From the NCBI RefSeq assembly GCF_001677475.2, contig NZ_CP015229.1: a DNA stretch of 64,000 nt; one strand, 5' to 3'. This stretch comes from Escherichia coli. Lineage in GTDB: Bacteria > Pseudomonadota > Gammaproteobacteria > Enterobacterales > Enterobacteriaceae. Position numbers and translations under genes: made by a program. Below, in pieces: positions 6,103-52,623 of the stretch. Below the pieces are notes generated by a model. The model had not been told where the DNA came from, searched no databases, and saw only the letters and a program-made list of their open reading frames with translations. The stretch's first letter is position 1; each line of letters starts with the position of its first letter.

Positions 6103-6144
6103 TGATTAAAAGATGAGCGGTTGAAATAAAAATGCATTTTTCCG

Positions 6145-6173: not shown

Positions 6174-6254
6174 GCGCCTCCATCGACACGGCGGATGTGA
6201 ATCACTTCACACAAGCAGTCGGTTCGGTTGAAGAGAAAAATCCTGAGATTCAGG

Positions 6255-6283
6255 GTTGACTCTGAAAGAGGAAAGCGTAATAT
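6255..6283 (+). promoter_or_regulatory. rrnH P2 promoter (-35 gttgac / -10 taatat)
   Basis: gttgactctgaaagaggaaagcgtaatat with 16-bp spacer, ~110 bp downstream of P1. Confidence 0.7.
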
Positions 6284-6323
6284 ACGCCACCTCGCGACAG
6301 TGAGCTGAAAGCCGCGTCGCAAC

Positions 6324-6336
6324 TGCTCTTTAACAA
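6324..6336 (+). promoter_or_regulatory. boxA antitermination element of rrn leader
   Basis: tgctctttaacaa in the 16S leader. Confidence 0.75.
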
Positions 6337-6467
6337 TTTATCAGACAATCTGTGTGGGCACTCGAAGATACGGATTCTTAACGTCGCAAGACGAAAAATG
6401 AATACCAAGTCTCAAGAGTGAACACGTAATTCATTACGAAGTTTAATTCTTTGAGCATCAAACTTTT

Positions 6468-8009
<1,542 letters not shown>

Positions 8010-8077
8010 CCTTAAAGAACTGTGCTTTGCAGTGCTCACACAGATTGTCTGATGAAAATGAGCAGTAAAACCTCTAC

Positions 8078-8154
<77 letters not shown>

Positions 8155-8196
8155 AATTTGCACCGCAAATTTGAAGAGGTTTTAACTACATGTTAT

Positions 8197-8272
8197 GGGG
8201 CTATAGCTCAGCTGGGAGAGCGCCTGCTTTGCACGCAGGAGGTCTGCGGTTCGATCCCGCATAGCTCCACCA
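8197..8272 (+). tRNA. alaV: tRNA-Ala (TGC)
   Basis: ggggctatagctcagctgggagagcgcctgctttgcacgcaggaggtctgcggttcgatcccgcatagctccacca. Confidence 0.97.
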
Positions 8273-8455
8273 TCTCTGTAGTGATTAAATAAAAAATACT
8301 TCAGAGTGTACCTGCAAAGGTTCACTGCGAAGTTTTGCTCTTTAAAAATCTGGATCAAGCTGAAAATTGAAACACTGAACAACGAAAGTTGTTCGTGAGT
8401 CTCTCAAATTTTCGCAACACGATGATGCATCGAAAGAAACATCTTCGGGTTGTGA

Positions 8456-11359
<2,904 letters not shown>

Positions 11360-13582: not shown

Positions 13583-13771
13583 TTTTGCTCCTGTTGCAAA
13601 ATAGATGAGATATTTTGAATTTATTTGTCATTAAACCATCAGGATGCGTGATATGTCATCCGATTTAATGTTCTCAATAATGAGCAAATTTCTGACCGGT
13701 GTAAGCACTTGCTTACATAACAATATACAATTGCTCGTTGAAAGAGTGAGCTAAAATCCCTATAACAGTAG

Positions 13772-14623
<852 letters not shown>

Positions 14624-14699
14624 GGTATGTCAGGTCTGCCACAGGGCAGACCAACGTTTGGCGCTGCCCTTTTTAATCAAACAATAAAAGGACAGCGCA

Positions 14700-15470
14700 A
14701 TGACAACACAATCCCACCATGACCACGTAGAAAAGCAGTTTAGCTCTCAAGCCAGCGAATATCTGACCAGTACCGTACATGCATCCGGACGAGATTTACA
14801 GCGCCTGGCGGTGCGTCTGGCTGATTATCCTGATGCAAGTGTACTTGATATGGGCTGCGGAGCAGGGCATGCCAGCTTTGTTGCTGCGCAAAACGTGAGC
14901 GCGGTGGTGGCGTATGACTTATCTGCCCAAATGCTGGATGTCGTGGCACAAGCTGCCGAAGCCCGGCAACTGAAAAATATCACCACCCGCCAGGGTTATG
15001 CCGAAAGTCTGCCATTTGCCGATAACGCATTTGATATTGTTATCAGCCGTTATTCTGCCCATCACTGGCATGATGTTGGTGCAGCACTGCGTGAAGTGAA
15101 CCGGATATTGAAACCTGGCGGTAGGCTGATTGTGATGGACGTAATGTCTCCGGGCCACCCAGTGCGCGACATCTGGTTACAGACGGTAGAAGCATTACGC
15201 GATACCTCTCACGTACGAAACTACGCCAGCGGTGAGTGGTTGACGTTAATCAATGAAGCCAATCTGGTAGTTGATAATTTAATTACAGATAAGTTACCGC
15301 TGGAATTTTCTTCATGGGTCGTGAGAATGCGTACGCCAGAAGCGTTAGTAGACGCTATTCGCATTTACCAACAGAGCGCATCGACAGAGGTGAGAACGTA
15401 TTTTTCCTTGCAGAATGATGGCTCTTTCATCAGTGATATCATCATGGTAGAAGCACATAAAGCGGCATAA
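14700..15470 (+). CDS. yafE: SAM-dependent methyltransferase (start may be internal; K-12 annotation is shorter)
   Basis: Class I MTase motif VLDMGCGAGHAS; 256-aa longest ORF. Confidence 0.8.
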   Translation: MTTQSHHDHVEKQFSSQASEYLTSTVHASGRDLQRLAVRLADYPDASVLDMGCGAGHASFVAAQNVSAVVAYDLSAQMLDVVAQAAEARQLKNITTRQGYAESLPFADNAFDIVISRYSAHHWHDVGAALREVNRILKPGGRLIVMDVMSPGHPVRDIWLQTVEALRDTSHVRNYASGEWLTLINEANLVVDNLITDKLPLEFSSWVVRMRTPEALVDAIRIYQQSASTEVRTYFSLQNDGSFISDIIMVEAHKAA

Positions 15471-15473
15471 ATA

Positions 15474-15510
15474 AAAAAGGCACCGGGGGAATCGGTGCCT
15501 TTTTATTATC
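15474..15510. terminator. Bidirectional Rho-independent terminator between yafE and mltD
   Basis: aaaaaaggcaccg-gggga-atcggtgcctttttatt palindrome flanked by A and T runs. Confidence 0.8.
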
Positions 15511-15517
15511 TGGTTTG

Positions 15518-16876
15518 TCAGGAATCTGGCATGTTGTTGTTTTTCACAAACAACGTCAGCTTATCGCCTGGTTGCAGATTCGCAGTGTCGCTGTTCCAGC
15601 GCATCACATCTTTAATGTTCACGCCGTGGCGTTTAGCAATGCTTGAAAGCGAATCGCCTTTGCGCACACGATACGTAATGCTATCGCTGTTGTTTGCCAA
15701 CCGCTGTGCGCTACTACCTGCGCCAATCGTCAAGCTTTGGCCTGGCTTCAGCTTAGATCCGCGCAGTTTGTTCCACTGCTGCAAATCCTTGGTGCTAACG
15801 CCGAGACGTGAAGCGATACTTGAAAGCGTGTCGCCAGAGCGTACGGTGTAAACACGGCTGTTAAGCGGCGTATTGTCGGCAACCAGCGTCGACTGTACAG
15901 CAGCAATTTCGCCCGAAGCCAGAGATTCACGCAGTTGATCTGCATGCTTCTTTGGCACCATCACGTACTGCGGACCACTTGCGCCCAGCGTGGAGCCTTT
16001 CACGCCAGCGTTGAATGTCTTCAGCTTGCTGACGGAAATCCCCGCCATATCTGCAACCTTCGCCATTTCAACCGGGCTGCTCAGGTGCACACGCGCCAGA
16101 GCACGGCTTTCATCGGTCGTTGGCAGACGTACGCCATAACGCTTGCTGTTTTTGAGAATATCACTCAATGCCAGCATTTTAGGCACGTACTGCTTCGTTT
16201 CCTGCGGCAACGGTAACGACCAGAAGTCCGTGGATTTCCCACGCGCTTTGTTCGTTTTAATTGCCTTCATGACCCGACCTTCGCCGCTGTTATAAGCCGC
16301 TACGGTCAGAAGCCAGTCGCCGTCAAACATCTTGTTCAGACGCTGCATCATGTTCAGCGCGGCAGTTGTTGAAGCAACAACATCGCGACGCGCGTCATAA
16401 TTGCGGGTCTGTTTCAAACCATAATTGCGCCCCGTGCTCGGAATGATCTGCCAGATGCCTGCGGCATTGGCGCCAGACGTTGCGTGAGGATCAAAAGCGC
16501 TCTCCACTATGGGTAGTAGTACCAGTTCCATAGGCATGTTACGTTTTTTAACTTGCCCGGCTATCCAGTACATATACGGCTCTGCCCGTAAAGTTACATC
16601 GTGGAGATAGCTCTTATTGCGTAAATATTTCTGTTTCTGTTCGCGAATCCGGTCATTTTCCGGAATTCCCATCTTTAGCTCGTCGCCAATGAAAGCCCAC
16701 AAGTCACCATCTGGCGCGATAGACGTCCCATCGTCCATCCATCGTGCCTGACTTGTAAACTTTGCTGCTTCCCCTTGACCAGCTGCAGAAAGGCTCTGTG
16801 CGTGCTGTTGAACGTTGCCGGTACTCTGGCAACCCACGAGCAGGACAGAGGCGAGTAATATCGCTTTTGCCTTCAT
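15518..16876 (-). CDS. mltD: Membrane-bound lytic murein transglycosylase D (LysM repeats)
   Basis: 452-aa ORF, lipoprotein signal (LLVGCQS), SLT domain, two C-terminal LysM repeats (YTVRSGDTLSSIA, YRVRKGDSLSSIA). Confidence 0.9.
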   Translation of the reverse strand: MKAKAILLASVLLVGCQSTGNVQQHAQSLSAAGQGEAAKFTSQARWMDDGTSIAPDGDLWAFIGDELKMGIPENDRIREQKQKYLRNKSYLHDVTLRAEPYMYWIAGQVKKRNMPMELVLLPIVESAFDPHATSGANAAGIWQIIPSTGRNYGLKQTRNYDARRDVVASTTAALNMMQRLNKMFDGDWLLTVAAYNSGEGRVMKAIKTNKARGKSTDFWSLPLPQETKQYVPKMLALSDILKNSKRYGVRLPTTDESRALARVHLSSPVEMAKVADMAGISVSKLKTFNAGVKGSTLGASGPQYVMVPKKHADQLRESLASGEIAAVQSTLVADNTPLNSRVYTVRSGDTLSSIASRLGVSTKDLQQWNKLRGSKLKPGQSLTIGAGSSAQRLANNSDSITYRVRKGDSLSSIAKRHGVNIKDVMRWNSDTANLQPGDKLTLFVKNNNMPDS

Positions 16877-16947
16877 GTGTGTGTCAATAGTTGCTTAAAA
16901 GACGACCGATCATAACGGCGAACGGAGCCGATGACAAGAAAGTTTTA

Positions 16948-17706
<759 letters not shown>

Positions 17707-19851: not shown

Positions 19852-19928
19852 GGAGCGGTAGTTCAGTCGGTTAGAATACCTGCCTGTCACGCAGGGGGTC
19901 GCGGGTTCGAGTCCCGTCCGTTCCGCCA
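19852..19928 (+). tRNA. aspV: tRNA-Asp (GTC); integration site of the downstream island
   Basis: 77-nt sequence identical to aspU; followed by a hairpin terminator. Confidence 0.97.
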
Positions 19929-21116: not shown

Positions 21117-22112
21117 TCAGTGCGCCAGGTAGTGTTCTGGTTCGAAAATCATGCCCGTCACCGGGTTTTCGTGCATGGCTTTACCCGCCCATGCGGTCCA
21201 GCCCAGTTGGTACGAACCACCGGTAACAGCCGGAGGGGCGGCGTGGGGCTTTAGCTGTAGCTCAATTTCCCAGCAGTATTCAAAACCGCTAAAGGAGCGG
21301 ACCAGTTCTGTCAGGACTGGCAGGTTATTGCCGCCAGGCAGAAAACGTCGGTAATCCTCCAGCGTCAGCGGGCCGATAACCAGCCGGAACTTATACTGCA
21401 TGTCCGGCACGGCCTGGCCGATGAGTGCACCGTTGCCAATAACGGAAGAGGGGGCTGGCATCCCCAGCCGGGTGATCTCATCGTCCGCCACGGCTATCCA
21501 GTGCAGGACATACTCCTGTATCCGGAAAGGTACACCGAAATAGTGCGCCAGCGTGGTGGCCAGACCGTCCGGATTGCGGGACTCACGCACCAGATGGGCC
21601 GATGCCGCCAGGCGAGCGTGATCCTGCAACGGGCTGTCGGCGCTCTCCCGCAAATCCTGCCCGCTGAGGCTGGCGATATAAAAGGCAAAACGGTCATGTT
21701 GCGGTTTATCCAGACCGCCCCCAGCGGACTGGGCGCTGCGCCATGCCTGGTAAAACTGCGTCAGCCAGCGGTGATGAAAAAGATCAGAAAAACGGGTTAG
21801 CGTCGGGTCTCTTCGGCTTTCAGTCCGGTTGTGCGCCAGTTCGGTGTAGTGCAGCGGCAGTGGACCGTTCGGCCCCCACAGCCCGAGACTGTACAAACTG
21901 ATATGCAGCCGCTCTTCCTGCCAGCTCACACTGGCGATTTCCCGTGGCGCAAAGGTCAGCGCGGGAGTTTGTCCGAGGCGAAATTTTTCCATCCGTGGTT
22001 GCCAGGTGTTGCCTGCCGGAACAGTACACAACTGCACATCCACGCGGCGCATCAGGTTCAGAAAACCGTAACGCCAGGGGGTTTCCTGCGCCTGAGTGAA
22101 ATCGTCGCTCAT
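21117..22112 (-). CDS. tssG: Type VI secretion baseplate protein TssG
   Basis: 331-aa ORF, 4-nt overlap with tssF; canonical tssE-tssF-tssG order. Confidence 0.8.
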   Translation of the reverse strand: MSDDFTQAQETPWRYGFLNLMRRVDVQLCTVPAGNTWQPRMEKFRLGQTPALTFAPREIASVSWQEERLHISLYSLGLWGPNGPLPLHYTELAHNRTESRRDPTLTRFSDLFHHRWLTQFYQAWRSAQSAGGGLDKPQHDRFAFYIASLSGQDLRESADSPLQDHARLAASAHLVRESRNPDGLATTLAHYFGVPFRIQEYVLHWIAVADDEITRLGMPAPSSVIGNGALIGQAVPDMQYKFRLVIGPLTLEDYRRFLPGGNNLPVLTELVRSFSGFEYCWEIELQLKPHAAPPAVTGGSYQLGWTAWAGKAMHENPVTGMIFEPEHYLAH

Positions 22113-23992
22113 ACGCTTCCCCGCTGTCCCGCCCTGGCAGGCCAGGTCATAATTTTGCCGCGCTGCATGCTGTGCAGCGTCATCTGCGAGAAGGTATTAA
22201 TGGAAACATGACGGGCGATATAGTGCTCCAACACCAGACCGAACAGATACGGACTGATACCGGAGAACCCCTCCTCATCCACGGTCAGTTCACAACTGAC
22301 GCCGCGCCCATAGACCAGCAGCCCGGAACCGGGCAGACGGCGGGTGACCGGGGTGGTGTTGCAGCCAATCAGGCTGCGCACCTGGCGCGACTGCGGACTG
22401 TCATGCGCCGGAATAAACAGGTTAAGCAGATCGCGCAGCGCCTGACCACCGGTACGGTGATCCAGATCGGCCAGCGGCAGATAGTTAAAGGATAACTGGC
22501 GGATCAACCGCCAGGCCATTTCACGTTCAGCCAGCGGAGGCTGCGGCGGACGCGGCGGACGGATAAGCCCCACGCCCGCCACCGGGATGGCCGCATCCAC
22601 GGTCAGATCGTCCCGTCCATTGCGGGCAATAAGACAGGGCAGATCGCGGTTGGTGACCATAGCCGTGATGGTGATATGGCGCAGATTTTCCGGGTATGGC
22701 GCTTCATACTGGTCAACCAGCGACAGGAACACTTCTGATCCTGTATAGGAGGTGCGGGTGCCATAGCGGCGGGCATTTTCCGACAACCGGCGCGGCTCCC
22801 GGCGCAGGGAAAAATAACGTCCGTGATTGCCTTCATCATTATTGCGGGTGTGGTAGAGCGGGCGAAAGGCCATCTTCCGTGTGGTGTCAGTTTCCAGCCC
22901 TTCCACTTCCTGGACCGAGAACACCTCATAATCCAGCGGATGGGTTCTGTCCACCACCAGATGCTGTTCCGTCGTGCTGTGCGTGACATCGATCCGGGCG
23001 GCGACTCGGGGAAACAGGTTGATAACCGGGGTACAGAACAGACTGAACTGTGCCGCGTTTGTCTGGTGGATCAGCCAGTCCGGCGGCAGGCGGTTCAGCA
23101 GGATAACAATCTCCGCCACTCCGCCTTCAATTTTCTGTAACCCGGCAGACAGGCCTGTCGGGGTGAAAAAAAAGAAGCGTTCCGGACAGGTAAAATATTC
23201 ATGTAGCAGGTTATGGCCGTGAAACACATTCCACGCCAGCGGCAACAGTCCCTGATCCGGATCCAGGCCTTCGTACATAACGGGCTGTTTCAGATTCACA
23301 TCCAGTGCGCCGTCAAAATGCCCCGGAATGCCAGCCAGGCTCGCGATGGCGCTGGTATGCAGTAGTTCGAACAGGTGTGAGGCCGTGCGCTCCTCGCCGC
23401 AGAGATAAAATGGTAGCTTGTTCAGCCCTGCAAGCTGACTGAACGTCAGTTCACCAAAGGTGCGCAGGGTAATACGCAGCGCACCAGCGACGTGAATGTT
23501 GGCTGGCAGGTAGCGGTGCAGGGCAGGCATATCCGGCGGCGCGGCGGTCAGGCGCACCTCTTCGATGGCAAGCGGCCACAGCGTCACATTCTGGCTGCTA
23601 CGAAACTGGCAGGCAGTACTTTCGCCTTCCGGAATGGCGGAAAAAAAGGCCGTGTTGCGCGGGACGGTGAATCCCTTCGCCAGATCGCCTTCTTCCGGAT
23701 CGGGATGAAGCTGCGCCACGCTCATTGAGGGCGTGGGTGTGACGTAATTGGGGCTGACCACTTCCAGCAGGCGCTGGGTGAAACGGGGGAATTCAGCGTC
23801 AATTTTTAGCTGCGTGCGGGCGGTCAGGAAGCTGAAGGCCTCGACCATTCGCTCCACATACGGATCGGCAATATCCGTTCCCTGCATACCCAGTCGGGCG
23901 GCGACTTTAGGATGACGGGCGGCAAATTCGGCTCCCGTTTCCCGCAGATAGCTCAGTTCGCGGTTGTAGTATTCCAGTAGCCGTGGATCCAT
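22109..23992 (-). CDS. tssF: Type VI secretion baseplate protein TssF
   Basis: 627-aa ORF; length and operon position. Confidence 0.85.
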   Translation of the reverse strand: MDPRLLEYYNRELSYLRETGAEFAARHPKVAARLGMQGTDIADPYVERMVEAFSFLTARTQLKIDAEFPRFTQRLLEVVSPNYVTPTPSMSVAQLHPDPEEGDLAKGFTVPRNTAFFSAIPEGESTACQFRSSQNVTLWPLAIEEVRLTAAPPDMPALHRYLPANIHVAGALRITLRTFGELTFSQLAGLNKLPFYLCGEERTASHLFELLHTSAIASLAGIPGHFDGALDVNLKQPVMYEGLDPDQGLLPLAWNVFHGHNLLHEYFTCPERFFFFTPTGLSAGLQKIEGGVAEIVILLNRLPPDWLIHQTNAAQFSLFCTPVINLFPRVAARIDVTHSTTEQHLVVDRTHPLDYEVFSVQEVEGLETDTTRKMAFRPLYHTRNNDEGNHGRYFSLRREPRRLSENARRYGTRTSYTGSEVFLSLVDQYEAPYPENLRHITITAMVTNRDLPCLIARNGRDDLTVDAAIPVAGVGLIRPPRPPQPPLAEREMAWRLIRQLSFNYLPLADLDHRTGGQALRDLLNLFIPAHDSPQSRQVRSLIGCNTTPVTRRLPGSGLLVYGRGVSCELTVDEEGFSGISPYLFGLVLEHYIARHVSINTFSQMTLHSMQRGKIMTWPARAGQRGSV

Positions 23993-32262: not shown

Positions 32263-32670
32263 ATGGCATATGTTTATGGACTGGTAGATTCATTACAGGG
32301 CACTGACATGGTGGGAATGGCGGGGGCAGGAGACAGAAAGGAATGTGTGTTCTTAGTTCAGGTATATGCACATGTGGGGAATACTGGAGCCTGGAAGCAG
32401 GGGCGAAAGGTTTTTGGGGATAAATCGATCCCCAGAGGAACAGCAATTGCCACTTTTGTTAACGGAAAGTATCCCTCGAGGCAGAATGAGCATAAGCATG
32501 CCGCTTTCTATCTGGAACAGGATAGTCAGTATATTTATGTTATGGACCAGTGGACAGGTAAAACCACGAAAGTCTCTGCACGCCCTATTTCCCGAAAAGG
32601 TGGAATGCGCAGCGATGGAACATATCCTGATGCCAGTAATAATGCGGAAGCTTTTTATATTATTGAGTAG
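32263..32670 (+). CDS. Small Cys/His-containing protein without signal peptide; candidate T6SS effector (possibly Tae2-like amidase)
   Basis: 135-aa AT-rich ORF between tssC and hcp; Cys in KECVFLV and His in EHKHAAFY; family assignment tentative. Confidence 0.4.
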   Translation: MAYVYGLVDSLQGTDMVGMAGAGDRKECVFLVQVYAHVGNTGAWKQGRKVFGDKSIPRGTAIATFVNGKYPSRQNEHKHAAFYLEQDSQYIYVMDQWTGKTTKVSARPISRKGGMRSDGTYPDASNNAEAFYIIE

Positions 32671-32682
32671 AGGATAGATTCA

Positions 32683-33135
32683 ATGGGAACACGTTTTATT
32701 TTTTCTCTGTTGTTGGGTTTTATGTTGTTTTATTCACCATTTGTTGCAGCGTGGGAAGTCAGTTGCCCCGTGTTTATCAATATAAAATCCTCAACAACAG
32801 TACTGGAGCCAGATATATCTGCATCGTGGCAGAGATCTTCCCGCTATGAACCCCGTCTGTGGTTGGACGGGGTAGGGATGTCGCAGGGAAAACCTGAAAA
32901 TCGGGTGGATCTAAAACCAGAGACAGAGACAATAAAGGGTGAAACCAGGCAAATATGGGATACCACAATGGCCAGTAATCAGAATAGTGAACGTTACTGG
33001 GTTTCCTGTATTTATAACCATGGACAGGTTTGGTTATCACAACCGGTCCCTGCATTGGCGACACAGTGCCAGGCATCTTCTTTGCCGGGGCAGCGGGTAC
33101 CAGGAGAGTCATCGGTATCTGTGACATGTAAATAG
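32683..33135 (+). CDS. Secreted Cys-containing protein; candidate immunity partner
   Basis: 150-aa ORF with N-terminal signal peptide (FSLLLGFMLFYSPFVAAWE), 12 nt after preceding gene. Confidence 0.4.
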   Translation: MGTRFIFSLLLGFMLFYSPFVAAWEVSCPVFINIKSSTTVLEPDISASWQRSSRYEPRLWLDGVGMSQGKPENRVDLKPETETIKGETRQIWDTTMASNQNSERYWVSCIYNHGQVWLSQPVPALATQCQASSLPGQRVPGESSVSVTCK

Positions 33136-33308: not shown

Positions 33309-33800
33309 ATGAAAATGGCTTATGACATTTTTCTGAAAATTGACGGCATTGACGGCGAGTCAATGGATGACAAACATAAAAATGAAATTGAGGTGCTGAG
33401 CTGGCGCTGGAATATCCACCAGGAGTCCACCATGCACGCGGGTAGCGGTCTGGGATCCGGCAAAGTCTCCGTGACTAACCTGGAGTTTGAACATTACATC
33501 GATCGCGCTAGCCCGAACCTGTTCAAATACTGCGCCTCTGGTAAGCATATTCCAAAGTCCATCCTTGTCATGCGCAAAGCAGGCGGCAATCCGCTGGAAT
33601 ACCTCAAATATACCTTCACTGACCTGATTGTGGCTGTTGTTTCCCCCAGTGGTAGTAAGGAGGGTGAGATCGCCTCCCGCGAGAGAGTCGAACTATCTTT
33701 CAGCACCGTGAAGCAGGAATACGTGGTGCAGAACCAGCAGGGCGGCAGCGGCGGCACAATCACGGCAGGTTACGATTTCAAAGCTAACAAAGAAATTTAA
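33309..33800 (+). CDS. hcp: T6SS inner tube protein Hcp (TssD)
   Basis: 163-aa ORF MAYDIFLKIDGIDGESMDDKHKNEIEVLSWRWNIHQ...; strong RBS. Confidence 0.93.
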   Translation: MKMAYDIFLKIDGIDGESMDDKHKNEIEVLSWRWNIHQESTMHAGSGLGSGKVSVTNLEFEHYIDRASPNLFKYCASGKHIPKSILVMRKAGGNPLEYLKYTFTDLIVAVVSPSGSKEGEIASRERVELSFSTVKQEYVVQNQQGGSGGTITAGYDFKANKEI

Positions 33801-34404: not shown

Positions 34405-35748
34405 ATGAGTTGGAATAACCGGGTGGTCTGGAGTGAAGGACAATTTTTGTTGCCACAGATGTTTCAGCAGCAGGAACGCTATCTGGAACATGTCATTCAT
34501 TATCGCAGTTTGCCTCTTTCACCTTTTTACTGGGGTTTCAATGAGTATGGTATTGGTAGTGAGGCGCTGAACATCGGAAAACTGGTACTTACGAAGGCTT
34601 CCGGGGTATTTGCTGACGGTACACCTTTTAATGCGCCGGGTCATACACCACTCCCGCCGCCGCTGACCATCCTTCCAGAACATCTTAACCAGTTGATTTA
34701 TCTGGCTGTGCCAATACGTACGCCGAACAGTGAAGAAACCAGTTTCGACAATAACCCTGAATCACTGGCACGTTTTTCGGTACATGAAAGTGAAATCCGT
34801 GATGCCAATTCGCTGGGGCGAGGCGCGCAACTGCTGCAACTTAGCCACCTGCGCTTGCGACTGTTACCGGAAAAGGCGGTGACAGACGCGTGGATCGGCC
34901 TGCCGCTGACGCGCATCACGGCGCTGCATCCCGATGGTCGGGTCGATATAGACAAAGAGTTGATCCCGCCAGTGGCGAACTACCAGGCCAGTACGCTGAT
35001 ATGTACCTGGCTGTCGTGGATTAACGATCTGATAAAAATGCGTGCAGATTCGCTGGCGGAACGATTGACGGGGAGCGACAAACACGGTCATGAAGCGGCG
35101 GAAGTGTCGGATTACCTGCTTCTGCAAGTTCTTAATCGTTTCGGCCCCTTATTGATCCATATGTCGAAAACGCCGCTATCGCCTGAAGTACTTTATCGTA
35201 ACCTCTGCGCACTGGCCGGAGAACTCTCTACCTACGTGCGTCCGCAAACACGTCGTCCGGAAGAATATAAAGAATATAAGCACCTGACGCCCTATGCCGG
35301 GCTGAAATCGGTGGTGGACGAGGTTCAGTATCTACTGAATGCTGTGCTAATACGTGGGGCGCAGCGAATCCCTCTGGAAGAGGGAACTTACGGTATTCTC
35401 AATGCGGTGGTTGAACCTACCGAACTGTCAGATTTCAGCTCGTTAGTATTGGCGGTGAAGGCACAGATGTCCGCCGACACCTTACTACAACATTTTTCGG
35501 CTCAGACCAAAATAGGGCCGTCAGAACGCCTGCCGGAACTGATTCGCTCGCACCTTCCTGGTCTTGTTCTACAGGTGCTGCCAGTGCCACCGCGTCAGAT
35601 CCCGTTCCAGTCCGGTTACATCTATTACGACATCCGCCGCGACGGCGTGTTGTGGGAACATATCGCCCGCTATGGTGGCATGGCAATGCATACCGCCGGA
35701 GAGTTTCCAGGGCTGGAGCTGGAGCTGTGGGGAGTTCGCGATAAATGA
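34405..35748 (+). CDS. tssK: T6SS baseplate protein TssK
   Basis: 447-aa ORF; position between tssJ and tssL. Confidence 0.88.
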   Translation: MSWNNRVVWSEGQFLLPQMFQQQERYLEHVIHYRSLPLSPFYWGFNEYGIGSEALNIGKLVLTKASGVFADGTPFNAPGHTPLPPPLTILPEHLNQLIYLAVPIRTPNSEETSFDNNPESLARFSVHESEIRDANSLGRGAQLLQLSHLRLRLLPEKAVTDAWIGLPLTRITALHPDGRVDIDKELIPPVANYQASTLICTWLSWINDLIKMRADSLAERLTGSDKHGHEAAEVSDYLLLQVLNRFGPLLIHMSKTPLSPEVLYRNLCALAGELSTYVRPQTRRPEEYKEYKHLTPYAGLKSVVDEVQYLLNAVLIRGAQRIPLEEGTYGILNAVVEPTELSDFSSLVLAVKAQMSADTLLQHFSAQTKIGPSERLPELIRSHLPGLVLQVLPVPPRQIPFQSGYIYYDIRRDGVLWEHIARYGGMAMHTAGEFPGLELELWGVRDK

Positions 35749-36464
35749 CCGACGATATTCTGACGCAACCTGCGGTGAATACCCTGCAATTACAGCCTTC
35801 AATGAGGGGAACAAGGTCGCCTGATAATGACGGTTACGATACGCTCGTCCAGGACAGCCTTCGCAGGGAAGATATAAAGGTGGTGGTTGAAGACGGGCCA
35901 GATTTGAAGCTCCGCTTGGCTGAGATCACTGCTGCTGTGAATCCTCTTCTGGCGGCGGCCAGCCCTCTGTTATGCGCGCTGGCGCAAATGCCCCGTGAAC
36001 TTTCCCCTGGTTTTGTCGAACATTATCGCGCCCTACTGGAGCGTGAAGTCCGCCGGTATCAGACGCTGTGCGACCAGGCAAACCTGCGCCGCGAACATGT
36101 GCTGGCGGTACGTTACTGCGTGTGCACGGCGCTGGATGAAGCTGCCAACAACACCGTCTGGGGGCGACGCGGTGTCTGGGCCGGGAAGAGCCTGCTGGTG
36201 ACTTTTCATGGCGAAAGTGAAGGCGGCATCAAGCTGTTTCAGATAATCGGGCGTCTGGCCGCCAGCTTCCAGGAGCACAGCGATGTACTGGAAATCATTT
36301 ACCACATTCTGGGACTGGGTTTTGAAGGCCGCTACAGTGTACGGCCTGACGGGCGTAAACAACTGGACGATATCCGCCAGCAACTGCTGACTCAACTGGT
36401 CCAGCGTCGCGATCCGATCACGCCGACGCTCTTGCCGGGTTTTGCCGGTGCCGTCAGTGGGTGA
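35745..36464 (+). CDS. tssL: TssL cytoplasmic DotU-like domain (239 aa), ends at in-frame TGA before its expected membrane anchor
   Basis: 4-nt overlap with tssK; no TM helix in this ORF; stop 36462..36464 immediately followed in-frame by ATG of the next ORF. Confidence 0.7.
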   Translation: MTDDILTQPAVNTLQLQPSMRGTRSPDNDGYDTLVQDSLRREDIKVVVEDGPDLKLRLAEITAAVNPLLAAASPLLCALAQMPRELSPGFVEHYRALLEREVRRYQTLCDQANLRREHVLAVRYCVCTALDEAANNTVWGRRGVWAGKSLLVTFHGESEGGIKLFQIIGRLAASFQEHSDVLEIIYHILGLGFEGRYSVRPDGRKQLDDIRQQLLTQLVQRRDPITPTLLPGFAGAVSG

Positions 36465-37061
36465 ATGCGGCGGATGCGCCGGGTGCCGGTCTGGCTGAGC
36501 GCCGGAATCGCCCTGCTGGTGATGCTGACGCTGTTTGGCCTTTACAGCCACCGGATGAACCTCGCCACCGAAACCGTACAACAGCGTATCGACGCCATTG
36601 GTAAAAATCTTCCGCCGCCACCCGTTCCGGTGCATAAACTGCGGTTGAAAATCCTGCTGGCGAACGAAATCGCCCGTGGCCTGCTGACGGTGGAGGAAGA
36701 TGACCATCACAGCCGTGTAATCTTTCGTGGCGATACGATGTTTATACCGGGGCAGAAAACCGTGAATGATGCGCTGCGCCCGGTGATTGACAAGGCCGCG
36801 CGTGAGATTGCGCGTGTGGGGGGCGCGGTGACGGTGACCGGCCACACGGACAGCCAGCCGATCCACTCCGCTGAATTCCCGTCCAACCAGGTATTGTCGG
36901 AAAAACGTGCGGCAGAAGTAGCTTCGCTGCTGACATCTGGTGGCGTTCCGGCTAGCCGAATTCGGGGTGTCGGTAAAGGGGATACTATGCCGGTGGCTGA
37001 TAATAGTACTAAAACTGGACGAGCGCAGAATCGCCGGGTGGAAATTCTGGTGGTGGAGTGA
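36465..37061 (+). CDS. TM helix plus OmpA/MotB-like peptidoglycan-binding domain (expected C-terminal part of a long-form TssL)
   Basis: 198-aa ORF; TM segment WLSAGIALLVMLTLFGLY then OmpA-like motifs (TGHTDSQP…NQVLSEKRA…NRRVEI). Confidence 0.7.
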   Translation: MRRMRRVPVWLSAGIALLVMLTLFGLYSHRMNLATETVQQRIDAIGKNLPPPPVPVHKLRLKILLANEIARGLLTVEEDDHHSRVIFRGDTMFIPGQKTVNDALRPVIDKAAREIARVGGAVTVTGHTDSQPIHSAEFPSNQVLSEKRAAEVASLLTSGGVPASRIRGVGKGDTMPVADNSTKTGRAQNRRVEILVVE

Positions 37062-37069
37062 ATTAATAA

Positions 37070-37755
37070 TGGAAAAGCTAGAGTGTAATGCGTCTAACCA
37101 TTCGCCAGTGTGGGGAGTAACAGAATTTATATTCTGGAAACTGGCGCCTAAAAAATGGGGGGGAGGCGTAGCATTTGGGCGTTATTTTAAAGATGGTTGG
37201 GTGAAGCATAACGGTCTTTTGATCAATGCAGCTGCAAATGCCTGGCATTTACCTGCCCCCTTACTTGCTGGAGTTTGTTGGATTGAAGTAGGGGGTGATC
37301 CTCAGATTATAGACACGCTGGCATTTGAATTTCGTGCTATGAGTTGGAGTGGGCCTGAATGGGTTGATGAACATATCACAATCGCTTCGAAACCAGAAAA
37401 AACTTCTTTTGGTGCGGTGAGTATGCAATTGCGAACTGCAGCCAGAACACTCGGGCTTGATGAGACTAAAATGGACAACTCTCAGTTGCGTGAGCTGGCA
37501 AATTGTCTCCAGCATGATGTGTTTAATATACAATTAGCTGCAAGACATCTTTATCAATTGGCTGAAAAAGATGGTTTTCAGGTATCCTTACCTCACCTGA
37601 CAAAAGAACAAATAAGAATTATTGGAGCTCGTTATAATCGAGGTGTTTCCCTTAGTCTGGAAAAAATAAAGGAAGATACCAGCTATGGCGATTTTATTAT
37701 AAATAACTGGTTACATTTCTCTAGTTTATTAATAACTACCTGGAAGTCTTCATGA
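37070..37755 (+). CDS. Lysozyme-like / lytic-transglycosylase-like protein without signal peptide; candidate Tge-type effector or T6SS-associated murein hydrolase
   Basis: AT-rich; start MEKLECN chosen after OmpA ORF stop (track 36940 start overlaps it); motifs CWIEVGG, FGAVSMQL, IGARYNRG resemble GH23 E…S / GLMQ / AYN-G. Confidence 0.4.
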
Positions 37756-38039
37756 GAAAAATAATTCAGATATCAGGGTGGTTATTATTTATTATGGGAT
37801 TGGTCACTATCATGCTTTTTTCCGGGAGTGAGTACCAGTGGATGCAGGATATGGACCCTTCAATAACAGCATTACCTCAGGGAAACGGAAATAGAGATGT
37901 AATCAGAAAATTAATTTATTCTATTTCAGTGGCTATTCAGATTGTTCTTTATTTTCTTTCAGTATCGCGTACAGGAAAGGGATTTTCAGCCCTGGGTATT
38001 TTGCTATTACTGATTACCGCATGGAGCTCTGAACAATAA
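37752..38039 (+). CDS. Small two-TM membrane protein; candidate immunity
   Basis: 95-aa ORF coupled (ATGA) to the upstream gene; hydrophobic segments WLLFIMGLVTIMLF and LGILLLLITAW. Confidence 0.4.
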   Translation: MRKIIQISGWLLFIMGLVTIMLFSGSEYQWMQDMDPSITALPQGNGNRDVIRKLIYSISVAIQIVLYFLSVSRTGKGFSALGILLLLITAWSSEQ

Positions 38040-41000
38040 TGCAAAAATTTCTCAGTCTGCTGTTTTCCCGCCGCACACTGGCCGTTGTCGGCGTGGTGGT
38101 GCTGGCGTTGCTGGTCTGGTTTATCGGGCCGCTGGTGGCGTTTGACACCTTGCATCCGCTTGCGTCCGTGGGTAGCCGGGTAGTCACTATCGTTCTGTTA
38201 CTGATGTTCCTTGCACTGTGGCTGGTTAACTGGTCGATGAGCATCATTGGCGTTACGGTTCTGTGCCTGGTTATCGGCTTTGTCTCACCGTTGCTGGCCT
38301 TCGGTGATGTTTATCCATTTGCGCCGCTGTGGCTGCGTCTGACGCTTATCGGCCTGATCCTTCTGTCTTATACGCTGTATGGCCTGTACCGATTGTGGCG
38401 GGCGCTGCGTCTGGATGAACAACTGCTGCGCCGTTTCCTGCATCCGCGCGGGGAAGATGTTCCGGTGGCAGGGGAAATTAAAGCCGACTTACGCACCGTC
38501 AGCCATATTGTCACTCGCGCTATTCGGCAACTGAAGCAACTGCGCGTAGACCTGCCGGGTTGGCGTAAGGTGCTGGAAGGAAAGCGTTTTCTGTACGAAC
38601 TGCCGTGGTTCATGGTTATCGGCAGCCCCGGTGATGGTAAAACTACCGCGCTGCTTAACACCGGGCTACAGTTTCCGCTGGCGGAGCAGATGGAGCAGAC
38701 CGCGCATATCCTTACCGTGCCGGGCGGCGGCACGCTGCACTGCGACTGGTGGTTCACCAACGAAGCGGTGCTCATTGACACTGCCGGGCGCTATGCCCGC
38801 CACGATGACGGCGGTGAAATCAGTGCGACCCAGCGCAACGCCGGGGAATGGCAGGGGTTTCTGGGACTGCTGCGTAAACACCGTCCCGGCGCACCGCTGA
38901 ACGGCGTTATCCTGACGCTAAACGTGGCGGATCTGACCGCGCAGTCCCCGGCGGAACGACTGGCTGCCTGTGCGGCTTTGCGTGCGCGGCTGGCTGAACT
39001 GCGTGAGACGCTGGGTATTCGTTTCCCGGTTTATCTGGTTGTCACTAAGATGGATCTGCTGCCGGGCTTTACGGAGTATTTCCGTGGGCTGACCAGTCAC
39101 CTGCGTGCCCAGGTCTGGGGCTTCACCCTGCCATACAGCCGCAGGCGTCACGCCAGCGATCCGCAGTCGTTGCATGCGCTCTGTGGCCAGGAACTGGCAA
39201 ATCTGACGCTGCGGCTGGATCAGGGGCTGGATACCCGGTTGCAGGAAGAGTACGACCTTAAAAGCCGTCAACGGCTCTACCGCTTTCCGCGCGAATTTGC
39301 CGCGCTGGGCGCGCCGCTGCTGGAAGCCATTGAACAGATTTTCCTCGATTCAAAATTTGACGCCACTCAGCTTAACAACACCCTACGCGGCGTATTTTTT
39401 ACCAGCGCCGCACAGGCGCAGGCAGACGCGGTGGCCGATCAGACGGGCATCTGGCAGCGCTTTGTCCGGGCGATCAAAGGGAAAGTGGAGTCACCTTCTC
39501 ATACCTTACCGGACGGCAACCGCAGCTATTTTCTTCATGACCTACTGACCCAGTTTATCTTCCGTGAAGCACACCTGGTGGAGCCGAATCTTCAATGGGC
39601 CTGGCGTTATCGCCTGCTGCGTACTGGCGGGCATCTGCTGGTACTAGCGTTGGCTTTCTGGTTGTGGCAGGGAATGCAGGGCAGCCAGCAGGGTAACAGC
39701 GGCTATCTGAATGAAATCGCCAGCCGGACGGTCCAACTGGATGGTGACGTCAAAGCCTATACCGGAAAACCTGCTATGCAGCCTGTCCCAGTCCTGTTGA
39801 ACCAGGCGCGGGCGCTCTCTGCCTGGCCGGGGCTGGACCCGGACTCACCGCCGCTGGCCTGGCGTTATGGTCTTTACAGCGTTCCGCCAGTAATGGAGAG
39901 CGTCGCATCCCTGTATGACCGTCTGCTGGACCAGCTCCTATTGCCGCCACTGGTGAAGCGCATGGAATATGTGCTTTCAGATGCCATTGCTCGTCAGGAC
40001 AGCAAAGCCGCGTATGACGCTCTGCATGTTTATCTGCTGCTGAATCTTGATAAAGACCACGAGGACAAATACAACGCAGCGGAGATCCACGCCTGGGTAC
40101 TGAACGATCTGGAAAACCGCGATAGCGTGGCGGAGTTCGGCGGCCGTGCAGCAGTGCTGGAACATATCGACGCCCTGTTTGACGGCAGCCGTGTGGTGCA
40201 TTCGCCTTATGACAAAGATGAGGGACTGATCCGCATGGCGCGGGCTTTCCTTGACGGTCATACCAGCACCGAGCGTATCTATACTCGAGCCCTGGCTTCC
40301 ATGGAGAGCGAAGCACCGCAGGAGTTTTCGCTGGTTCGCGCGGTGGGCGCGGATGCGGGGACGGTTTTTGTCCGCACGGATGGCGCGCCACTGGATAGGG
40401 GCGTGCCCGGCATCTTTACTCGCGAAGGCTACCGGGAACTGTTCGACAAACGGCTGTCGGAGTTTGTCGCCTCCGCATCAGCGGACGACGCCTGGGTAAT
40501 GGGCCGGGAAAACGCGCAAAAAAAAACGACTGATATTGTGATGAGCCAGTTGCCGGGGCAGGAACTCCCGGTTACCCGTGAGGTACGCCGCCTGTATCTG
40601 GCTGAATATGCCCGCCGCTGGCAGGATTTTCTGGCTAGTATTCACAGCATCAACAGTGCCGGGGAAGACGGTAGTCCCGGACTGGCGTATGACCTTCAGG
40701 TGCTTCGCACACTGGCCTCGCCTGACTCACCTCTGATGCGCCTGAGTAAAGCGGTGGTGGAGCAGACCACGCTGGTACCGCCGCTGGATGCGCAGGCCAG
40801 ACAAAAACAAATGGCCCAGCGCGCGCAGGACCGGCTCTCCGGTAATGCGGGTAAAGCAGTGCAGACGGCAAAGCTGTTGCAGGATATCCACCCGGAAGAG
40901 CGGCTGGAAAAATCGCTGGTGGATGACCGTTTCGCCGCTCTGCGGGAAGTGGTTTCCGGGCGGACGGACAGTGGACAGGGGGGCGGGGCGCCGCAGTTAA

Positions 41001-41905
41001 ATTCGCTGCTGACAATGCTCAATGAGTATTACACCCAGCTCACCATCGCCGACAGTGCATTGGCAGCGAGCACATTACCGGGCCGCATTTCGGCGGCGGA
41101 TAAACTACAACTGGAAGCGGCAAAACTGCCCGCACCGCTGAAAAATATTCTGCTGGATCTCACGCAGCAGGGAACGCGAAAGATCAACGCCGGCACCGGT
41201 GAAGTGCTGAACGCGCAGATGGAGGCGGTGATCGGTGATGAGTGCCGTGACGCCATTGACGGGCGCTATCCCTTCACCGACAGCCCGCAGGAAGTCAGCG
41301 CGGACGATTTTAACCGTATCTTTGCTAGCGGCGGTGTGCTGGATGCCTTCTGGACGAAGCAACTGGCCCCGCTGGCGGATACCGCCAGCAACCCGTGGCG
41401 ATACAAACCGACCGAAGGCAACATGACTTTACAGGGGCCGGACCTGACGCCGTTTCAGGAGGCGAAACAGATCCGCAGCGTGTTTTTTAACGGCGACGGC
41501 GGGAAAAAGTTCTCCTGGGCGATGCAGGTCCGCGTCGTGGATATGGACCCGGCCATCACCGAACTGGTGATTGACATTGACGGCCAGGTACTGCGTTACG
41601 CTCACGGCCCGGTCAGGCCGCTGAAAGTGAACTGGCCGGGTCCGCGCAACGGCTCAATGGCGGAAATAACCGCCAGCCCGCGCATCCGCCAGGACACCTC
41701 GACGCTGCTGACTAATGGACCGTGGGCGCTGTTTCACCTGCTGGATGCGGGAAAAGCGCAAGAAACGGCGGTACGGGGAATACAGCAGGTGGAGTACAGC
41801 TTTGACGGGCGGCGGGTGATACTGGAAATCACCGCCGGACGGGATTTTGACCCAGTGGATCGCGGACTATTGCAACTCTTCGCCTGCCCGGAGCGAGCGC
41901 TGTGA
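38039..41905 (+). CDS. tssM: T6SS membrane complex protein TssM (IcmF)
   Basis: 1288-aa ORF; N-terminal TM helices; Walker A GSPGDGKTT. Confidence 0.92.
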   Translation: MQKFLSLLFSRRTLAVVGVVVLALLVWFIGPLVAFDTLHPLASVGSRVVTIVLLLMFLALWLVNWSMSIIGVTVLCLVIGFVSPLLAFGDVYPFAPLWLRLTLIGLILLSYTLYGLYRLWRALRLDEQLLRRFLHPRGEDVPVAGEIKADLRTVSHIVTRAIRQLKQLRVDLPGWRKVLEGKRFLYELPWFMVIGSPGDGKTTALLNTGLQFPLAEQMEQTAHILTVPGGGTLHCDWWFTNEAVLIDTAGRYARHDDGGEISATQRNAGEWQGFLGLLRKHRPGAPLNGVILTLNVADLTAQSPAERLAACAALRARLAELRETLGIRFPVYLVVTKMDLLPGFTEYFRGLTSHLRAQVWGFTLPYSRRRHASDPQSLHALCGQELANLTLRLDQGLDTRLQEEYDLKSRQRLYRFPREFAALGAPLLEAIEQIFLDSKFDATQLNNTLRGVFFTSAAQAQADAVADQTGIWQRFVRAIKGKVESPSHTLPDGNRSYFLHDLLTQFIFREAHLVEPNLQWAWRYRLLRTGGHLLVLALAFWLWQGMQGSQQGNSGYLNEIASRTVQLDGDVKAYTGKPAMQPVPVLLNQARALSAWPGLDPDSPPLAWRYGLYSVPPVMESVASLYDRLLDQLLLPPLVKRMEYVLSDAIARQDSKAAYDALHVYLLLNLDKDHEDKYNAAEIHAWVLNDLENRDSVAEFGGRAAVLEHIDALFDGSRVVHSPYDKDEGLIRMARAFLDGHTSTERIYTRALASMESEAPQEFSLVRAVGADAGTVFVRTDGAPLDRGVPGIFTREGYRELFDKRLSEFVASASADDAWVMGRENAQKKTTDIVMSQLPGQELPVTREVRRLYLAEYARRWQDFLASIHSINSAGEDGSPGLAYDLQVLRTLASPDSPLMRLSKAVVEQTTLVPPLDAQARQKQMAQRAQDRLSGNAGKAVQTAKLLQDIHPEERLEKSLVDDRFAALREVVSGRTDSGQGGGAPQLNSLLTMLNEYYTQLTIADSALAASTLPGRISAADKLQLEAAKLPAPLKNILLDLTQQGTRKINAGTGEVLNAQMEAVIGDECRDAIDGRYPFTDSPQEVSADDFNRIFASGGVLDAFWTKQLAPLADTASNPWRYKPTEGNMTLQGPDLTPFQEAKQIRSVFFNGDGGKKFSWAMQVRVVDMDPAITELVIDIDGQVLRYAHGPVRPLKVNWPGPRNGSMAEITASPRIRQDTSTLLTNGPWALFHLLDAGKAQETAVRGIQQVEYSFDGRRVILEITAGRDFDPVDRGLLQLFACPERAL

Positions 41906-42151: not shown

Positions 42152-42847
42152 ATGCAACAATATACGCGTTTTTTTATTATTTTTTTGTTATATGCCATGT
42201 CAGGAAATGTTTTTGCTGATATCAGAAAAAACACAGGAACTATTGACCCCGATTATATTAATCTCAGTGCGCAGGAATTTTTGTCATTTTATGCTCGTGG
42301 AACGTCACAGGAAAAAGAAAATGTTCTGATGTATGTCCTTGGTGTGAGTGATGCGACAGAAAGTAAAACCTGGTGTGGATATAATAAGATTAATGAAATA
42401 GAACTTTATTCATCGGTACTGACATATCTTAATCAGCAGTCGGTTAACGATATGAATATGCGAGCTTCAACTCTGATTGAACAAGCGATGGTCAGGCTGT
42501 TTCCCTGCCCGGATATGGCATCACCGGAAAAAAAATCTCCCCGGCAGTCATCTGTTTCACACCTGACCTCTGGCGCGTTCGATCTGAACGGAGATGATTT
42601 TTTCCGCTTCTGGCAGTCAGATAACAGGCAGGATAGGCTTAATGCGAAAATCTATCTTTTGGGTATAGAAGATGCCACGGAAAGAAAAACATGGTGCGAT
42701 TATAAAACGATTAAAACAGTTACACTGGATGAGATTATTTACTGGTATTTCAGAAAAAAAACGTCAGATAAACTGAATGAACGGGCTGCAAATATTATTA
42801 TTGAGGCACTAAGTAAACACTCCTGTGATAAAGGAAATAATAAATGA
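42152..42847 (+). CDS. Secreted protein with two tandem homologous domains; candidate immunity for Tae4
   Basis: 231-aa AT-rich ORF; signal peptide (FFIIFLLYAMSGNVFA); internal repeat (…VLMYVLGVSDATESKTWCGYNKI… vs …IYLLGIEDATERKTWCDYKTI…). Confidence 0.4.
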   Translation: MQQYTRFFIIFLLYAMSGNVFADIRKNTGTIDPDYINLSAQEFLSFYARGTSQEKENVLMYVLGVSDATESKTWCGYNKINEIELYSSVLTYLNQQSVNDMNMRASTLIEQAMVRLFPCPDMASPEKKSPRQSSVSHLTSGAFDLNGDDFFRFWQSDNRQDRLNAKIYLLGIEDATERKTWCDYKTIKTVTLDEIIYWYFRKKTSDKLNERAANIIIEALSKHSCDKGNNK

Positions 42848-43320
42848 AACCTTCATTTTTCACACTTAAAAAAAAACATTACTCATCAGTTCAGATTGAT
42901 GGTGATGTTTTGTACAGTGAAGTGGGTTATAACTATGAAGCACTGCAACAGCAAAATGCTGGTTATGTAAATACCTGTGCCACACGTATGAGTCTGGCGC
43001 TGATTAAATCAGGCGTCAGCTTTAACGGGCGACTGACGATCAAAAGTGGTGACTGGAAAGGGAAGAAAATAGAAACCGGTGCGAAATTACTGGCAGATCA
43101 GCTTTCCCGAGCTGATGTTTTTGGAAGACCAGTTATCTGGTGTGACTCAGAAAAATTTAAAACAGACACCAGTAATAAAAGAGGAGTGGTCTTTTTCTGG
43201 AAGATTACGGGTTACGGTGGCGGTCATATTGATCTTATTGAGCCTTCTACCACAGGTGCTATATGTCATTCACATTGCTATTTTAGCTGCAAGGAAATCT
43301 GGTTCTGGGAACTGAATTAA
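42844..43320 (+). CDS. tae4: Tae4-family T6SS amidase effector (peptidoglycan D-Glu-mDAP amidase family)
   Basis: 158-aa ORF, ATGA-coupled; Cys45 in NTCATRMSLAL and His128 in GGGHIDLIE, then CHSHCYF, as recalled for Tae4; no signal peptide. Confidence 0.6.
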   Translation: MKPSFFTLKKKHYSSVQIDGDVLYSEVGYNYEALQQQNAGYVNTCATRMSLALIKSGVSFNGRLTIKSGDWKGKKIETGAKLLADQLSRADVFGRPVIWCDSEKFKTDTSNKRGVVFFWKITGYGGGHIDLIEPSTTGAICHSHCYFSCKEIWFWELN

Positions 43321-47688: not shown

Positions 47689-48132
47689 ATGACCAGCCTT
47701 TACCGTATTCAGGAGGGCAGCTTTGCCCTGCCTGAAACTTTTCTTGATCGCACCGTCAATATCTTCGTCCCGTCGGGCAATGAGAGGGCAACTCCCAGTC
47801 TGAATATTTCCCGCGACACGCTCAGGCCCGAGGAAAACCTGACCACCTACATTGACCGCCAGATAGCCTTGATGAAAAAAAACCTGGGTCAGCACCGGGT
47901 ACTTTCGCGGGGAACGGCAGTGGCGGGAACTGGCGAAGCTGCCATGGCAGGTGAACAAATTCTCGCAACTCACCGTTCTGGAAAAACAGAAGTGTATCAG
48001 CGTCAGGCCGGGTTTATCACCGGGCCAGGAAAGGTTCTGGTGTTAACCCTGACCTGTCAACGTCCTTTTGATGAGCATACTGACCAGCTATGGACTGTCT
48101 GGTTGACCAGTTTTCAGCCCGCTAAGAGTTAA
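47689..48132 (+). CDS. eagR: DUF1795-family Eag chaperone (EagR-like) for the downstream prePAAR-Rhs effector
   Basis: 147-aa ORF between vgrG and rhs; size and position typical of Eag chaperones. Confidence 0.6.
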
Positions 48133-48137
48133 AATAA

Positions 48138-52623
<4,486 letters not shown>

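Follow-up and report, generated by a model that had tools for sequence, protein, structure and literature searches.

A putative peptidoglycan-cleaving effector and a membrane-embedded partner protein at the tssL-tssM junction of an Escherichia coli type VI secretion cluster

The stretch of Escherichia coli DNA considered here (64,000 nucleotides of contig NZ_CP015229.1, assembly GCF_001677475.2; 'the window') carries a type VI secretion system (T6SS) island that resembles Salmonella pathogenicity island 6 (SPI-6) and begins right after a tRNA-Asp gene (19852-19928). On the plus strand, the gene order hcp, tssJ, tssK, tssL is followed by two open reading frames (ORFs) of 228 and 95 amino acids (aa), and then by tssM (Table 1). 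These two ORFs are the subject of this report; they probably encode a toxin that cleaves peptidoglycan and a small membrane protein that confers immunity to it. Homologous clusters are found in ~2% of complete E. coli genomes, and strain A20 matches the region at 96-98% identity. In such clusters both ORFs are annotated as hypothetical, or the small one sometimes as 'DUF2645 family', a label that RefSeq gives to some of its orthologues.

Table 1. The gene pair and the T6SS genes that bear on its interpretation (window coordinates).
Feature	Coordinates	Strand	Basis
228-aa putative T6SS cargo effector, GH23/lysozyme-like, candidate catalytic Glu73	37069..37755	+	ORF call
95-aa putative cognate immunity protein, inner-membrane, distant DUF2645/YjeO relative	37752..38039	+	ORF, homologue pairing
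hcp, 163 aa, upstream, putative carrier	33309..33800	+	annotated Hcp in near-identical E. coli clusters
tssL, left border of variable slot, split by nonsense codon	35745..37061	+	NCBIfam long-form TssL models match both halves
tssM, 1288 aa, intact, right border of slot	38039..41905	+	ORF and annotation of homologous clusters

A preliminary description of the locus was right in placing two plus-strand ORFs here but began the pair one base late, at 37070; the ATG is at 37069, 7 nt past the tssL stop at 37061. The two ORFs share a 4-nt ATGA overlap, and the stop of the 95-aa ORF overlaps the start of tssM in the sequence TAATG (38037-38041). Through these overlaps, translational coupling ties the pair into the tssJ-K-L-M operon. 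Among 5,426 complete E. coli genomes, 100 carry the pair: 99 of them have a common allele at ~81% identity to that of the window, and one, A20 (NZ_CP028755.1, L001), is the only complete genome with the same allele (99.8%).

The pair had been described as AT-rich, and its base composition bears this out. Total G+C content and that of third codon positions (GC3) are 0.41 and 0.32 for the 228-aa gene and 0.37 and 0.34 for the 95-aa gene, versus 0.58 and 0.63 for tssL and 0.59 and 0.67 for tssM. A known effector-immunity pair, Rap1a/Tae4, downstream of tssM is equally low in GC3 (0.35-0.36). When compared with the common E. coli allele, the pair shows nonsynonymous divergence (dN) of 0.10-0.13 and synonymous divergence (dS) of 0.5-1.0; for tssK, tssL and tssM against the clusters with the common allele, dN is 0.013-0.05 and dS ~0.3. 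By these measures the pair diverges fast and has a history separate from, and older than, that of the flanking tss genes, and its G+C content marks it as foreign DNA, presumably acquired horizontally at the tssL-tssM slot. The dN/dS ratio against the common allele is 0.10-0.24, and thus both genes are functional and subject to purifying selection.

The 228-aa protein has an N-terminus without a hydrophobic stretch (MEKLECNASNHSPVWGV), in keeping with the earlier remark that it lacks a signal peptide. The motifs then singled out (IEVGG, GAVSMQL and ARYNRG) are real and represent the conserved core of a protein family. In 30 close homologues, Glu73 (in CWIEVGGDP), TSFGxVSxQxR and ARYNRG are invariant or nearly so. 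In an alignment of 148 diverse homologues, Glu73 and Ser113 are invariant, and G75, G76, P78, T112, G115, Q120, R188, Y189, N190, G192, Y206 and G207 are near-invariant. Homologues at 50-63% identity are found in Snodgrassella, Methylobacter, Rhodanobacter, Burkholderia, Yersinia, Paracidovorax, Cronobacter and Pseudomonas, and the close relatives span the Gamma-, Beta- and Alphaproteobacteria. Cys70 (three residues ahead of Glu73, in GVCWIE) and Cys146 are likewise invariant in the set of 30 close homologues, where Cys6 is nearly so. A disulfide among these cysteines (C6, C70, C146) that formed only in the oxidising periplasm of a target cell would be a candidate activation switch.

To which superfamily does the protein belong? 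Pfam, NCBIfam and PADLOC scans returned no match, and Pfam none even at E<=10, the SLT model (PF01464) included; in the longer homologues the SLT model gives a marginal signal (E 0.009-0.1) in only 4 of 48. A single-sequence search of the PDB returned only a chance match, to the Cry49Aa toxin (E 1.1), and a profile search with the family returned nothing; Tse3, the muramidase of the Pseudomonas aeruginosa H1-T6SS, did not appear at E<=10 in either search. The window itself encodes a 452-aa GH23-type ORF, presumably MltD. An hhalign comparison with this ORF matched the YNxG region only (E 0.12-0.17), where ARYNRG aligns weakly with AAYNSG. As this match is weak and local, a GH23 assignment cannot be claimed at the sequence level.

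The predicted structure is more informative. An AlphaFold2 model built from the alignment of 148 sequences (predicted local distance difference test, pLDDT, 94.9; predicted template modelling score, pTM, 0.90) has an alpha-helical, lysozyme-like fold; an earlier model from the alignment of 30 was poor (pLDDT 70, residues 78-122 disordered) and was not used. Structural comparison places Tse3 at the top, a result with which Foldseek agrees. Below it are Slt (score 10.6) and MltE (10.5), then MltF, MltC, Slt70 and goose-type lysozyme (9.1). The Salmonella effector Tge2 (PDB 4KT3) has neither sequence nor close structural similarity to the 228-aa protein (score 6.8). In the model, Glu73 is at the C-terminal end of a helix (residues 63-73); the end of a helix is the usual location of the catalytic glutamate in GH23 enzymes, and Glu73 is a candidate catalytic residue. 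With the sequence link to canonical SLT domains being marginal, the protein is thus assigned to the GH23/lysozyme-like superfamily by fold. The term 'Tge-type' used in the preliminary description holds in one sense only: the protein would work like a Tge effector, but by sequence it is a member of neither the Tge1 nor the Tge2 family.

The 95-aa partner is a membrane protein, and its coupling through ATGA is as first reported; the two transmembrane (TM) helices then assigned to it are not, as three hydrophobic segments are present (~4-22, 50-68 and 77-92). A loop between TM1 and TM2 carries the conserved sequence E-Y-x-W-M-x-D-M-D-P and is predicted by the positive-inside rule to face the periplasm. 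In a survey of gene neighbourhoods (58 species-representative loci with 10-kb flanks), a homologous ORF of 92-115 aa lies directly 3' of the enzyme gene in ~52 loci. These partners have a common layout: a short basic N-terminus, TM1, a loop with Y-x-W-M-x-(D/E)-x-D-P and an acidic stretch make up the N-terminal half; TM2, often with a Gln, a short basic turn and a third hydrophobic segment make up the C-terminal half. Mean pairwise identity is 23% for the partner versus 54% for the enzyme. The distance matrices of the two proteins correlate with r=0.73, a value inflated by shared phylogeny.

Relationship of the partner to DUF2645 is distant. Scans of the 95-aa protein with Pfam, NCBIfam and PADLOC gave nothing, with no DUF2645 match even at E<=10, and it has no PHROG match. 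In the partner family the Pfam DUF2645 model (PF10840) is weak, with 1 of 38 members matching at E<=0.001 and 12 of 38 at E<=0.1. A profile of the partner family, when aligned with YjeO of E. coli K-12, nevertheless gives an hhalign probability of 79% (E 1.5e-5) over a region that covers the E-W-M loop motif. In K-12 MG1655, yjeO (L071, 5705-6019) encodes an uncharacterised inner-membrane protein of the DUF2645 family. No lysozyme-like gene is annotated upstream of it; the gene that is there, yjeN, has no relation to the partner family. K-12 YjeO could be the product of an orphan immunity gene. That the entire DUF2645/YjeO family, K-12 yjeO included, provides membrane-embedded immunity against these lysozyme-like toxins is a tentative idea, and rather a doubtful one.

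The junction between tssL and tssM had been regarded as normally contiguous, but this does not hold in the T6SS lineage concerned. A survey of such junctions, as had been proposed, reveals that their contents differ between clusters. In 22 E. coli genomes, with flanks ~95% identical, the slot holds a 122-aa protein with a Tlde1 domain (Pfam PF10908, E 7e-11) and a 147-aa protein with a hydrophobic, signal-peptide-like N-terminus, that is, a member of a recognised T6SS effector family and a protein likely to be its immunity partner. In Snodgrassella alvi the tssL-tssM gap (L010, 4647-5171) contains an unrelated 174-aa ORF, also with a hydrophobic, signal-peptide-like N-terminus and without an NCBIfam match; this may be another immunity or effector gene, and the slot may thus be variable beyond E. 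coli. From these comparisons the tssL-tssM junction appears to be a variable effector slot of this E. coli T6SS lineage. Surveys of Salmonella SPI-6 describe three variable regions, after tssC, tssM and tssI, and none between tssL and tssM (PMC10469887). In one further genome, E. coli 6EVA (NZ_CP138428.1, L068, 6323-8784), the homologue of the 228-aa gene is cut by IS1 and IS256 insertions and the remainder of the island, tssM included, is deleted up to yafV-ivy-fadE, so that decay begins at the slot.

Outside this slot the pair is found in widely different surroundings. Among the 58 species loci, only that of E. coli has it between tssL and tssM. In a Snodgrassella cluster that is orthologous (TssK 70% identical), the pair comes after tagF, outside tssL-tssM. 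It directly adjoins hcp in seven other species (six of Pseudomonas and a Burkholderiaceae metagenome-assembled genome), and a conjugative Serratia plasmid has the order hcp, homologue, DUF2645. It is near vgrG in Kuenenia, near EagR and Rhs genes in an Enterobacter, and adjoins tssH in one locus (L056); in Paracidovorax citrulli it comes after an Rhs-immunity island. As a pair standing alone amid metabolic genes it is found in Yersinia pseudotuberculosis and Burkholderia ambifaria. Small IncFIB plasmids of Cronobacter carry the pair at 52% identity, near a RelE/ParE toxin-antitoxin locus (C. dublinensis pA84-2, 5980-6949), and the 12.6 kb examined there contains no annotated T6SS genes; the cassette is thus also plasmid-mobile. 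A tblastn search against 50,697 GenBank phage genomes found no match. This distribution argues for a mobile two-gene cassette and not a core component of the T6SS. Orthologues are not universally present as core components, as the other slots, the orphan loci and the replacement by a Tlde1 pair indicate.

The enzyme domain is also found as part of larger proteins. In a library of protein-cluster representatives, many homologues are proteins of 300-1,088 aa in which the domain is C-terminal. N-terminal partners in 48 of these longer homologues are eCIS_core (10), OmpA (5), PG_binding_1 (3-5), PAAR, DUF4280 and WXG100. The neighbours of the domain in the AlphaFold database include Rhs, PAAR, WXG100 and eCIS-core proteins, and in Minicystis rosea the domain forms the C-terminal tip of an Rhs-like ORF. 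On PAAR, Rhs, extracellular contractile injection system (eCIS) and type VII secretion system (T7SS; WXG100) carriers, it reaches the Cyanobacteria and Actinobacteria. The fusions with PAAR, Rhs, eCIS and WXG100 modules constitute a polymorphic-toxin signature, and those with peptidoglycan-binding modules fit a target in the cell wall.

A mobile bicistron, with fusions of its enzyme to PAAR, DUF4280, Rhs, eCIS-core and WXG100 modules and with a Tlde1 pair as its allelic counterpart, favours an effector-immunity reading, which was one of two alternatives raised for the locus at the outset. The small adjacent gene is conserved and the ATGA overlap couples it to the enzyme gene, with exposure of its loop being predicted; linkage or fusion to hcp, vgrG, PAAR and Rhs is found as well. 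With good confidence, the pair is therefore considered an antibacterial cassette consisting of a peptidoglycan-cleaving T6SS cargo effector and a DUF2645/YjeO-like membrane immunity protein. How might it work? Lacking a signal peptide, the 228-aa protein would be synthesised in the cytoplasm; from there it would probably be packed into or attached to Hcp and delivered to the periplasm of an adjacent Gram-negative cell. Hcp is suggested as the carrier by the recurrent adjacency of hcp. In the target, the GH23/lysozyme-like domain would cleave the N-acetylmuramic acid-N-acetylglucosamine (MurNAc-GlcNAc) backbone of peptidoglycan with Glu73 as general acid; the chemistry might be hydrolytic, i.e. 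that of a muramidase such as Tse3, or that of a lytic transglycosylase. The partner would be anchored with its N-terminus inside, followed by TM1, a periplasmic loop, TM2, a short basic cytoplasmic turn and TM3, and the loop (Y-x-W-M-x-D/E-x-D-P) would bind the enzyme and keep it inactive during mutual attack among sister cells.

Several observations weigh against this interpretation. The 228-aa form carries no MIX, FIX or PAAR delivery motif and no Pfam domain of any kind in the Pfam scan, and it matches PHROG 11932 (E 6e-73), a phage protein family of unknown function. In approximately three-quarters of the species loci no T6SS gene was detected within 10 kb, although the queries were the proteins of this window only. 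As the domain is also carried by eCIS and T7SS (WXG100) modules, the T6SS would not be its sole vehicle. Translational embedding of the gene in the membrane-complex operon is also compatible with a role in assembly. Full-text literature searches found no description of the 228-aa family, or of DUF2645 in a T6SS context. Lastly, delivery may be defunct in both known carriers of the allele. In the window a CGA->TGA change at 36462-36464, where three aligned E. coli clusters read CGA, has introduced a nonsense codon in tssL. The sequence at this stop is GGG TGA ATG, against GGx CGx ATG in the three clusters, and the ORF for the second half starts at the next codon, so that tssL is split into a cytoplasmic DotU part (35745..36464, 239 aa) and a part with the TM segment and an OmpA-like peptidoglycan-binding domain (36465..37061, 198 aa). 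Unless the two halves still cooperate, this genome probably has an inactive T6SS. In A20, hcp is disrupted by an IS21-like insertion element (locus 6788-9401) and tssM is frameshifted (13640-17505). With the secretion system decayed, the cassette may now serve only as retained immunity, or not at all.

The other alternative raised at the outset was a dedicated murein hydrolase that helps the apparatus to cross the cell wall. Such an enzyme would make space by locally opening the sacculus of the producing cell for insertion of TssJLM, in the manner of MltE and TagX, with the 95-aa protein as its anchor or regulator. The position in the operon fits this role. The 228-aa protein, however, has neither a signal peptide nor a lipobox that would take it to the periplasm of the producing cell; E. 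coli clusters that are close relatives hold a Tlde1 pair at the same slot instead; the pair is at a different position in Snodgrassella, and most species loci are without T6SS core genes within 10 kb. The foreign G+C content and the fusions to PAAR, Rhs, eCIS and WXG100 delivery modules also speak against it. As orthologues are not universal core components, a dedicated murein hydrolase is disfavoured, and it is judged improbable. A dual role, taken up once the pair had arrived in the tssJKLM operon, is highly improbable; here the enzyme would be both a fired toxin and the machine's own wall-breaching enzyme, set free in the periplasm of the producing cell where TssJLM assembles and held in check by the membrane-embedded DUF2645-like partner.

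Might the pair instead be a toxin and immunity protein delivered by other means, e.g. the cargo of a different contractile injection system or a bacteriocin-like module that needs no contact, which simply landed in a spot tolerant of insertions? The eCIS_core fusions (10 of the 48) and WXG100 fusions, neither of them T6SS modules, would agree with this, as would the orphan state of most loci and the Cronobacter plasmids, where the neighbours of the pair are toxin-antitoxin genes and the 12.6 kb examined has no annotated T6SS genes. But the pair is found beside hcp repeatedly, in independent lineages and on the Serratia plasmid, the slot alternates with Tlde1, a bona fide T6SS effector family, and T6SS genes share a transcript with the pair. 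Besides, Hcp-borne effectors are usually encoded in scattered bicistrons, tse1-3 of P. aeruginosa being examples. Delivery by other means is quite improbable. A phage-type lysis cassette, consisting of a signal-less endolysin and a multi-TM holin and either left over from a prophage or serving for release by lysis of the producing cell, is the least credible proposal. The pair has the outline of such a cassette, yet the phage genomes searched gave no match, PHROG 11932 being the sole phage-library signal, and the neighbourhoods inspected by annotation or Pfam profiling show no phage genes. A charged C-terminal tail, which holins typically have, is absent from the small protein, whose extramembrane loop instead carries a conserved motif, and the PAAR, Rhs and eCIS fusions indicate export as a toxin.

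The island carries other genes of a similar kind. Directly after tssM is an immunity gene of the Rap1a/Tai family (42152-42847, 231 aa, with a hydrophobic, signal-peptide-like N-terminus), which precedes the gene for a Tae4-family amidase effector (42844-43320, 158 aa); both are named after their RefSeq annotation in A20, whose cluster is near-identical, and NCBIfam gave no match. Between tssC and hcp are genes for a BPSL0067-family protein (32263-32670, 135 aa, NCBIfam E 8e-50) and an STY0301-family protein (32683-33135, 150 aa, E 2e-18, with a signal-peptide-like N-terminus). In the Salmonella literature, Tae2/Tai2 are located at the tssC-hcp position. An Rhs toxin is encoded at 48153-52295, with a DcrB-related protein upstream (47689-48132; A20 annotation). 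The wall-targeting pairs of the island may thus number three, all separate, in addition to the Rhs toxin. Elsewhere in the island, ARAGORN calls a 94-nt tRNA-His (22233-22326, minus strand) inside a 627-aa ORF on the same strand (22109-23992); the call is almost certainly a false positive.

If the effector-immunity reading is correct, a widespread and unnamed family of glycan-cleaving peptidoglycan toxins joins the T6SS arsenal, and a tiny integral membrane protein suffices for immunity where a soluble or lipoprotein inhibitor is usual. It would also suggest a role for the orphan DUF2645/YjeO family. The tssL-tssM junction would constitute a fourth variable effector slot of the E. coli SPI-6-like T6SS, in addition to the three of Salmonella SPI-6 (PMC10469887). 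The picture of how the T6SS works is unchanged by the cassette.

How does the pair compare with known systems? Tse3 (Tge1), whose immunity protein is Tsi3 (PDB 4LUQ, 3WA5, 4M5E), offers the nearest structural likeness, with only 17% identity over the structural alignment; Tse3 is larger (~408 aa versus 228 aa). Tsi3 is a soluble periplasmic protein, unlike the 95-aa partner, an integral membrane protein with three segments. Salmonella Tge2, encoded in SPI-6 variable region 2 (VR2) downstream of tssM, belongs to a different family. The recently published T6SS muramidase PseM/PA0990 (JBC 2025) is unrelated in fold, carries a signal peptide and is paired with an immunity protein of the Nudix type. 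Relative to the GH23 enzymes (Slt70/Slt, MltE, MltF, MltC, MltD and goose-type lysozyme), the 228-aa protein has ~40 residues, forming two extra helices, between the Glu and the Ser/Gln hairpin. Other differences are that it lacks both a signal peptide and a lipoprotein anchor, comes with a dedicated membrane partner and occurs fused to toxin-delivery modules. MltE, which is recruited by TssM in the Sci-1 system of enteroaggregative E. coli, and TagX of Acinetobacter are exported to their own periplasm and needed for T6SS assembly, whereas the 228-aa protein is without an export signal, sister clusters can dispense with it, and its behaviour is that of a mobile toxin module. The 95-aa protein is similar to YjeO in size and multi-TM layout, but in K-12 no lysozyme-like gene comes before yjeO. 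Tlde1/Tldi1 of Salmonella SPI-6 are like the cassette in bicistronic logic and peptidoglycan target, and it is a member of the Tlde1 family that takes the tssL-tssM slot in the 22 E. coli genomes. Tlde1, however, is unrelated in fold and chemistry, being YkuD-like (L,D-transpeptidase-like) and acting on peptide stems, and the Tlde1-type partner, with a signal-peptide-like N-terminus, is presumably soluble and periplasmic. Glycoside hydrolases that act on peptidoglycan and are paired with an immunity protein are a well-known kind of T6SS weapon; the family is new, and the putative immunity protein is unusual in being embedded in the membrane.

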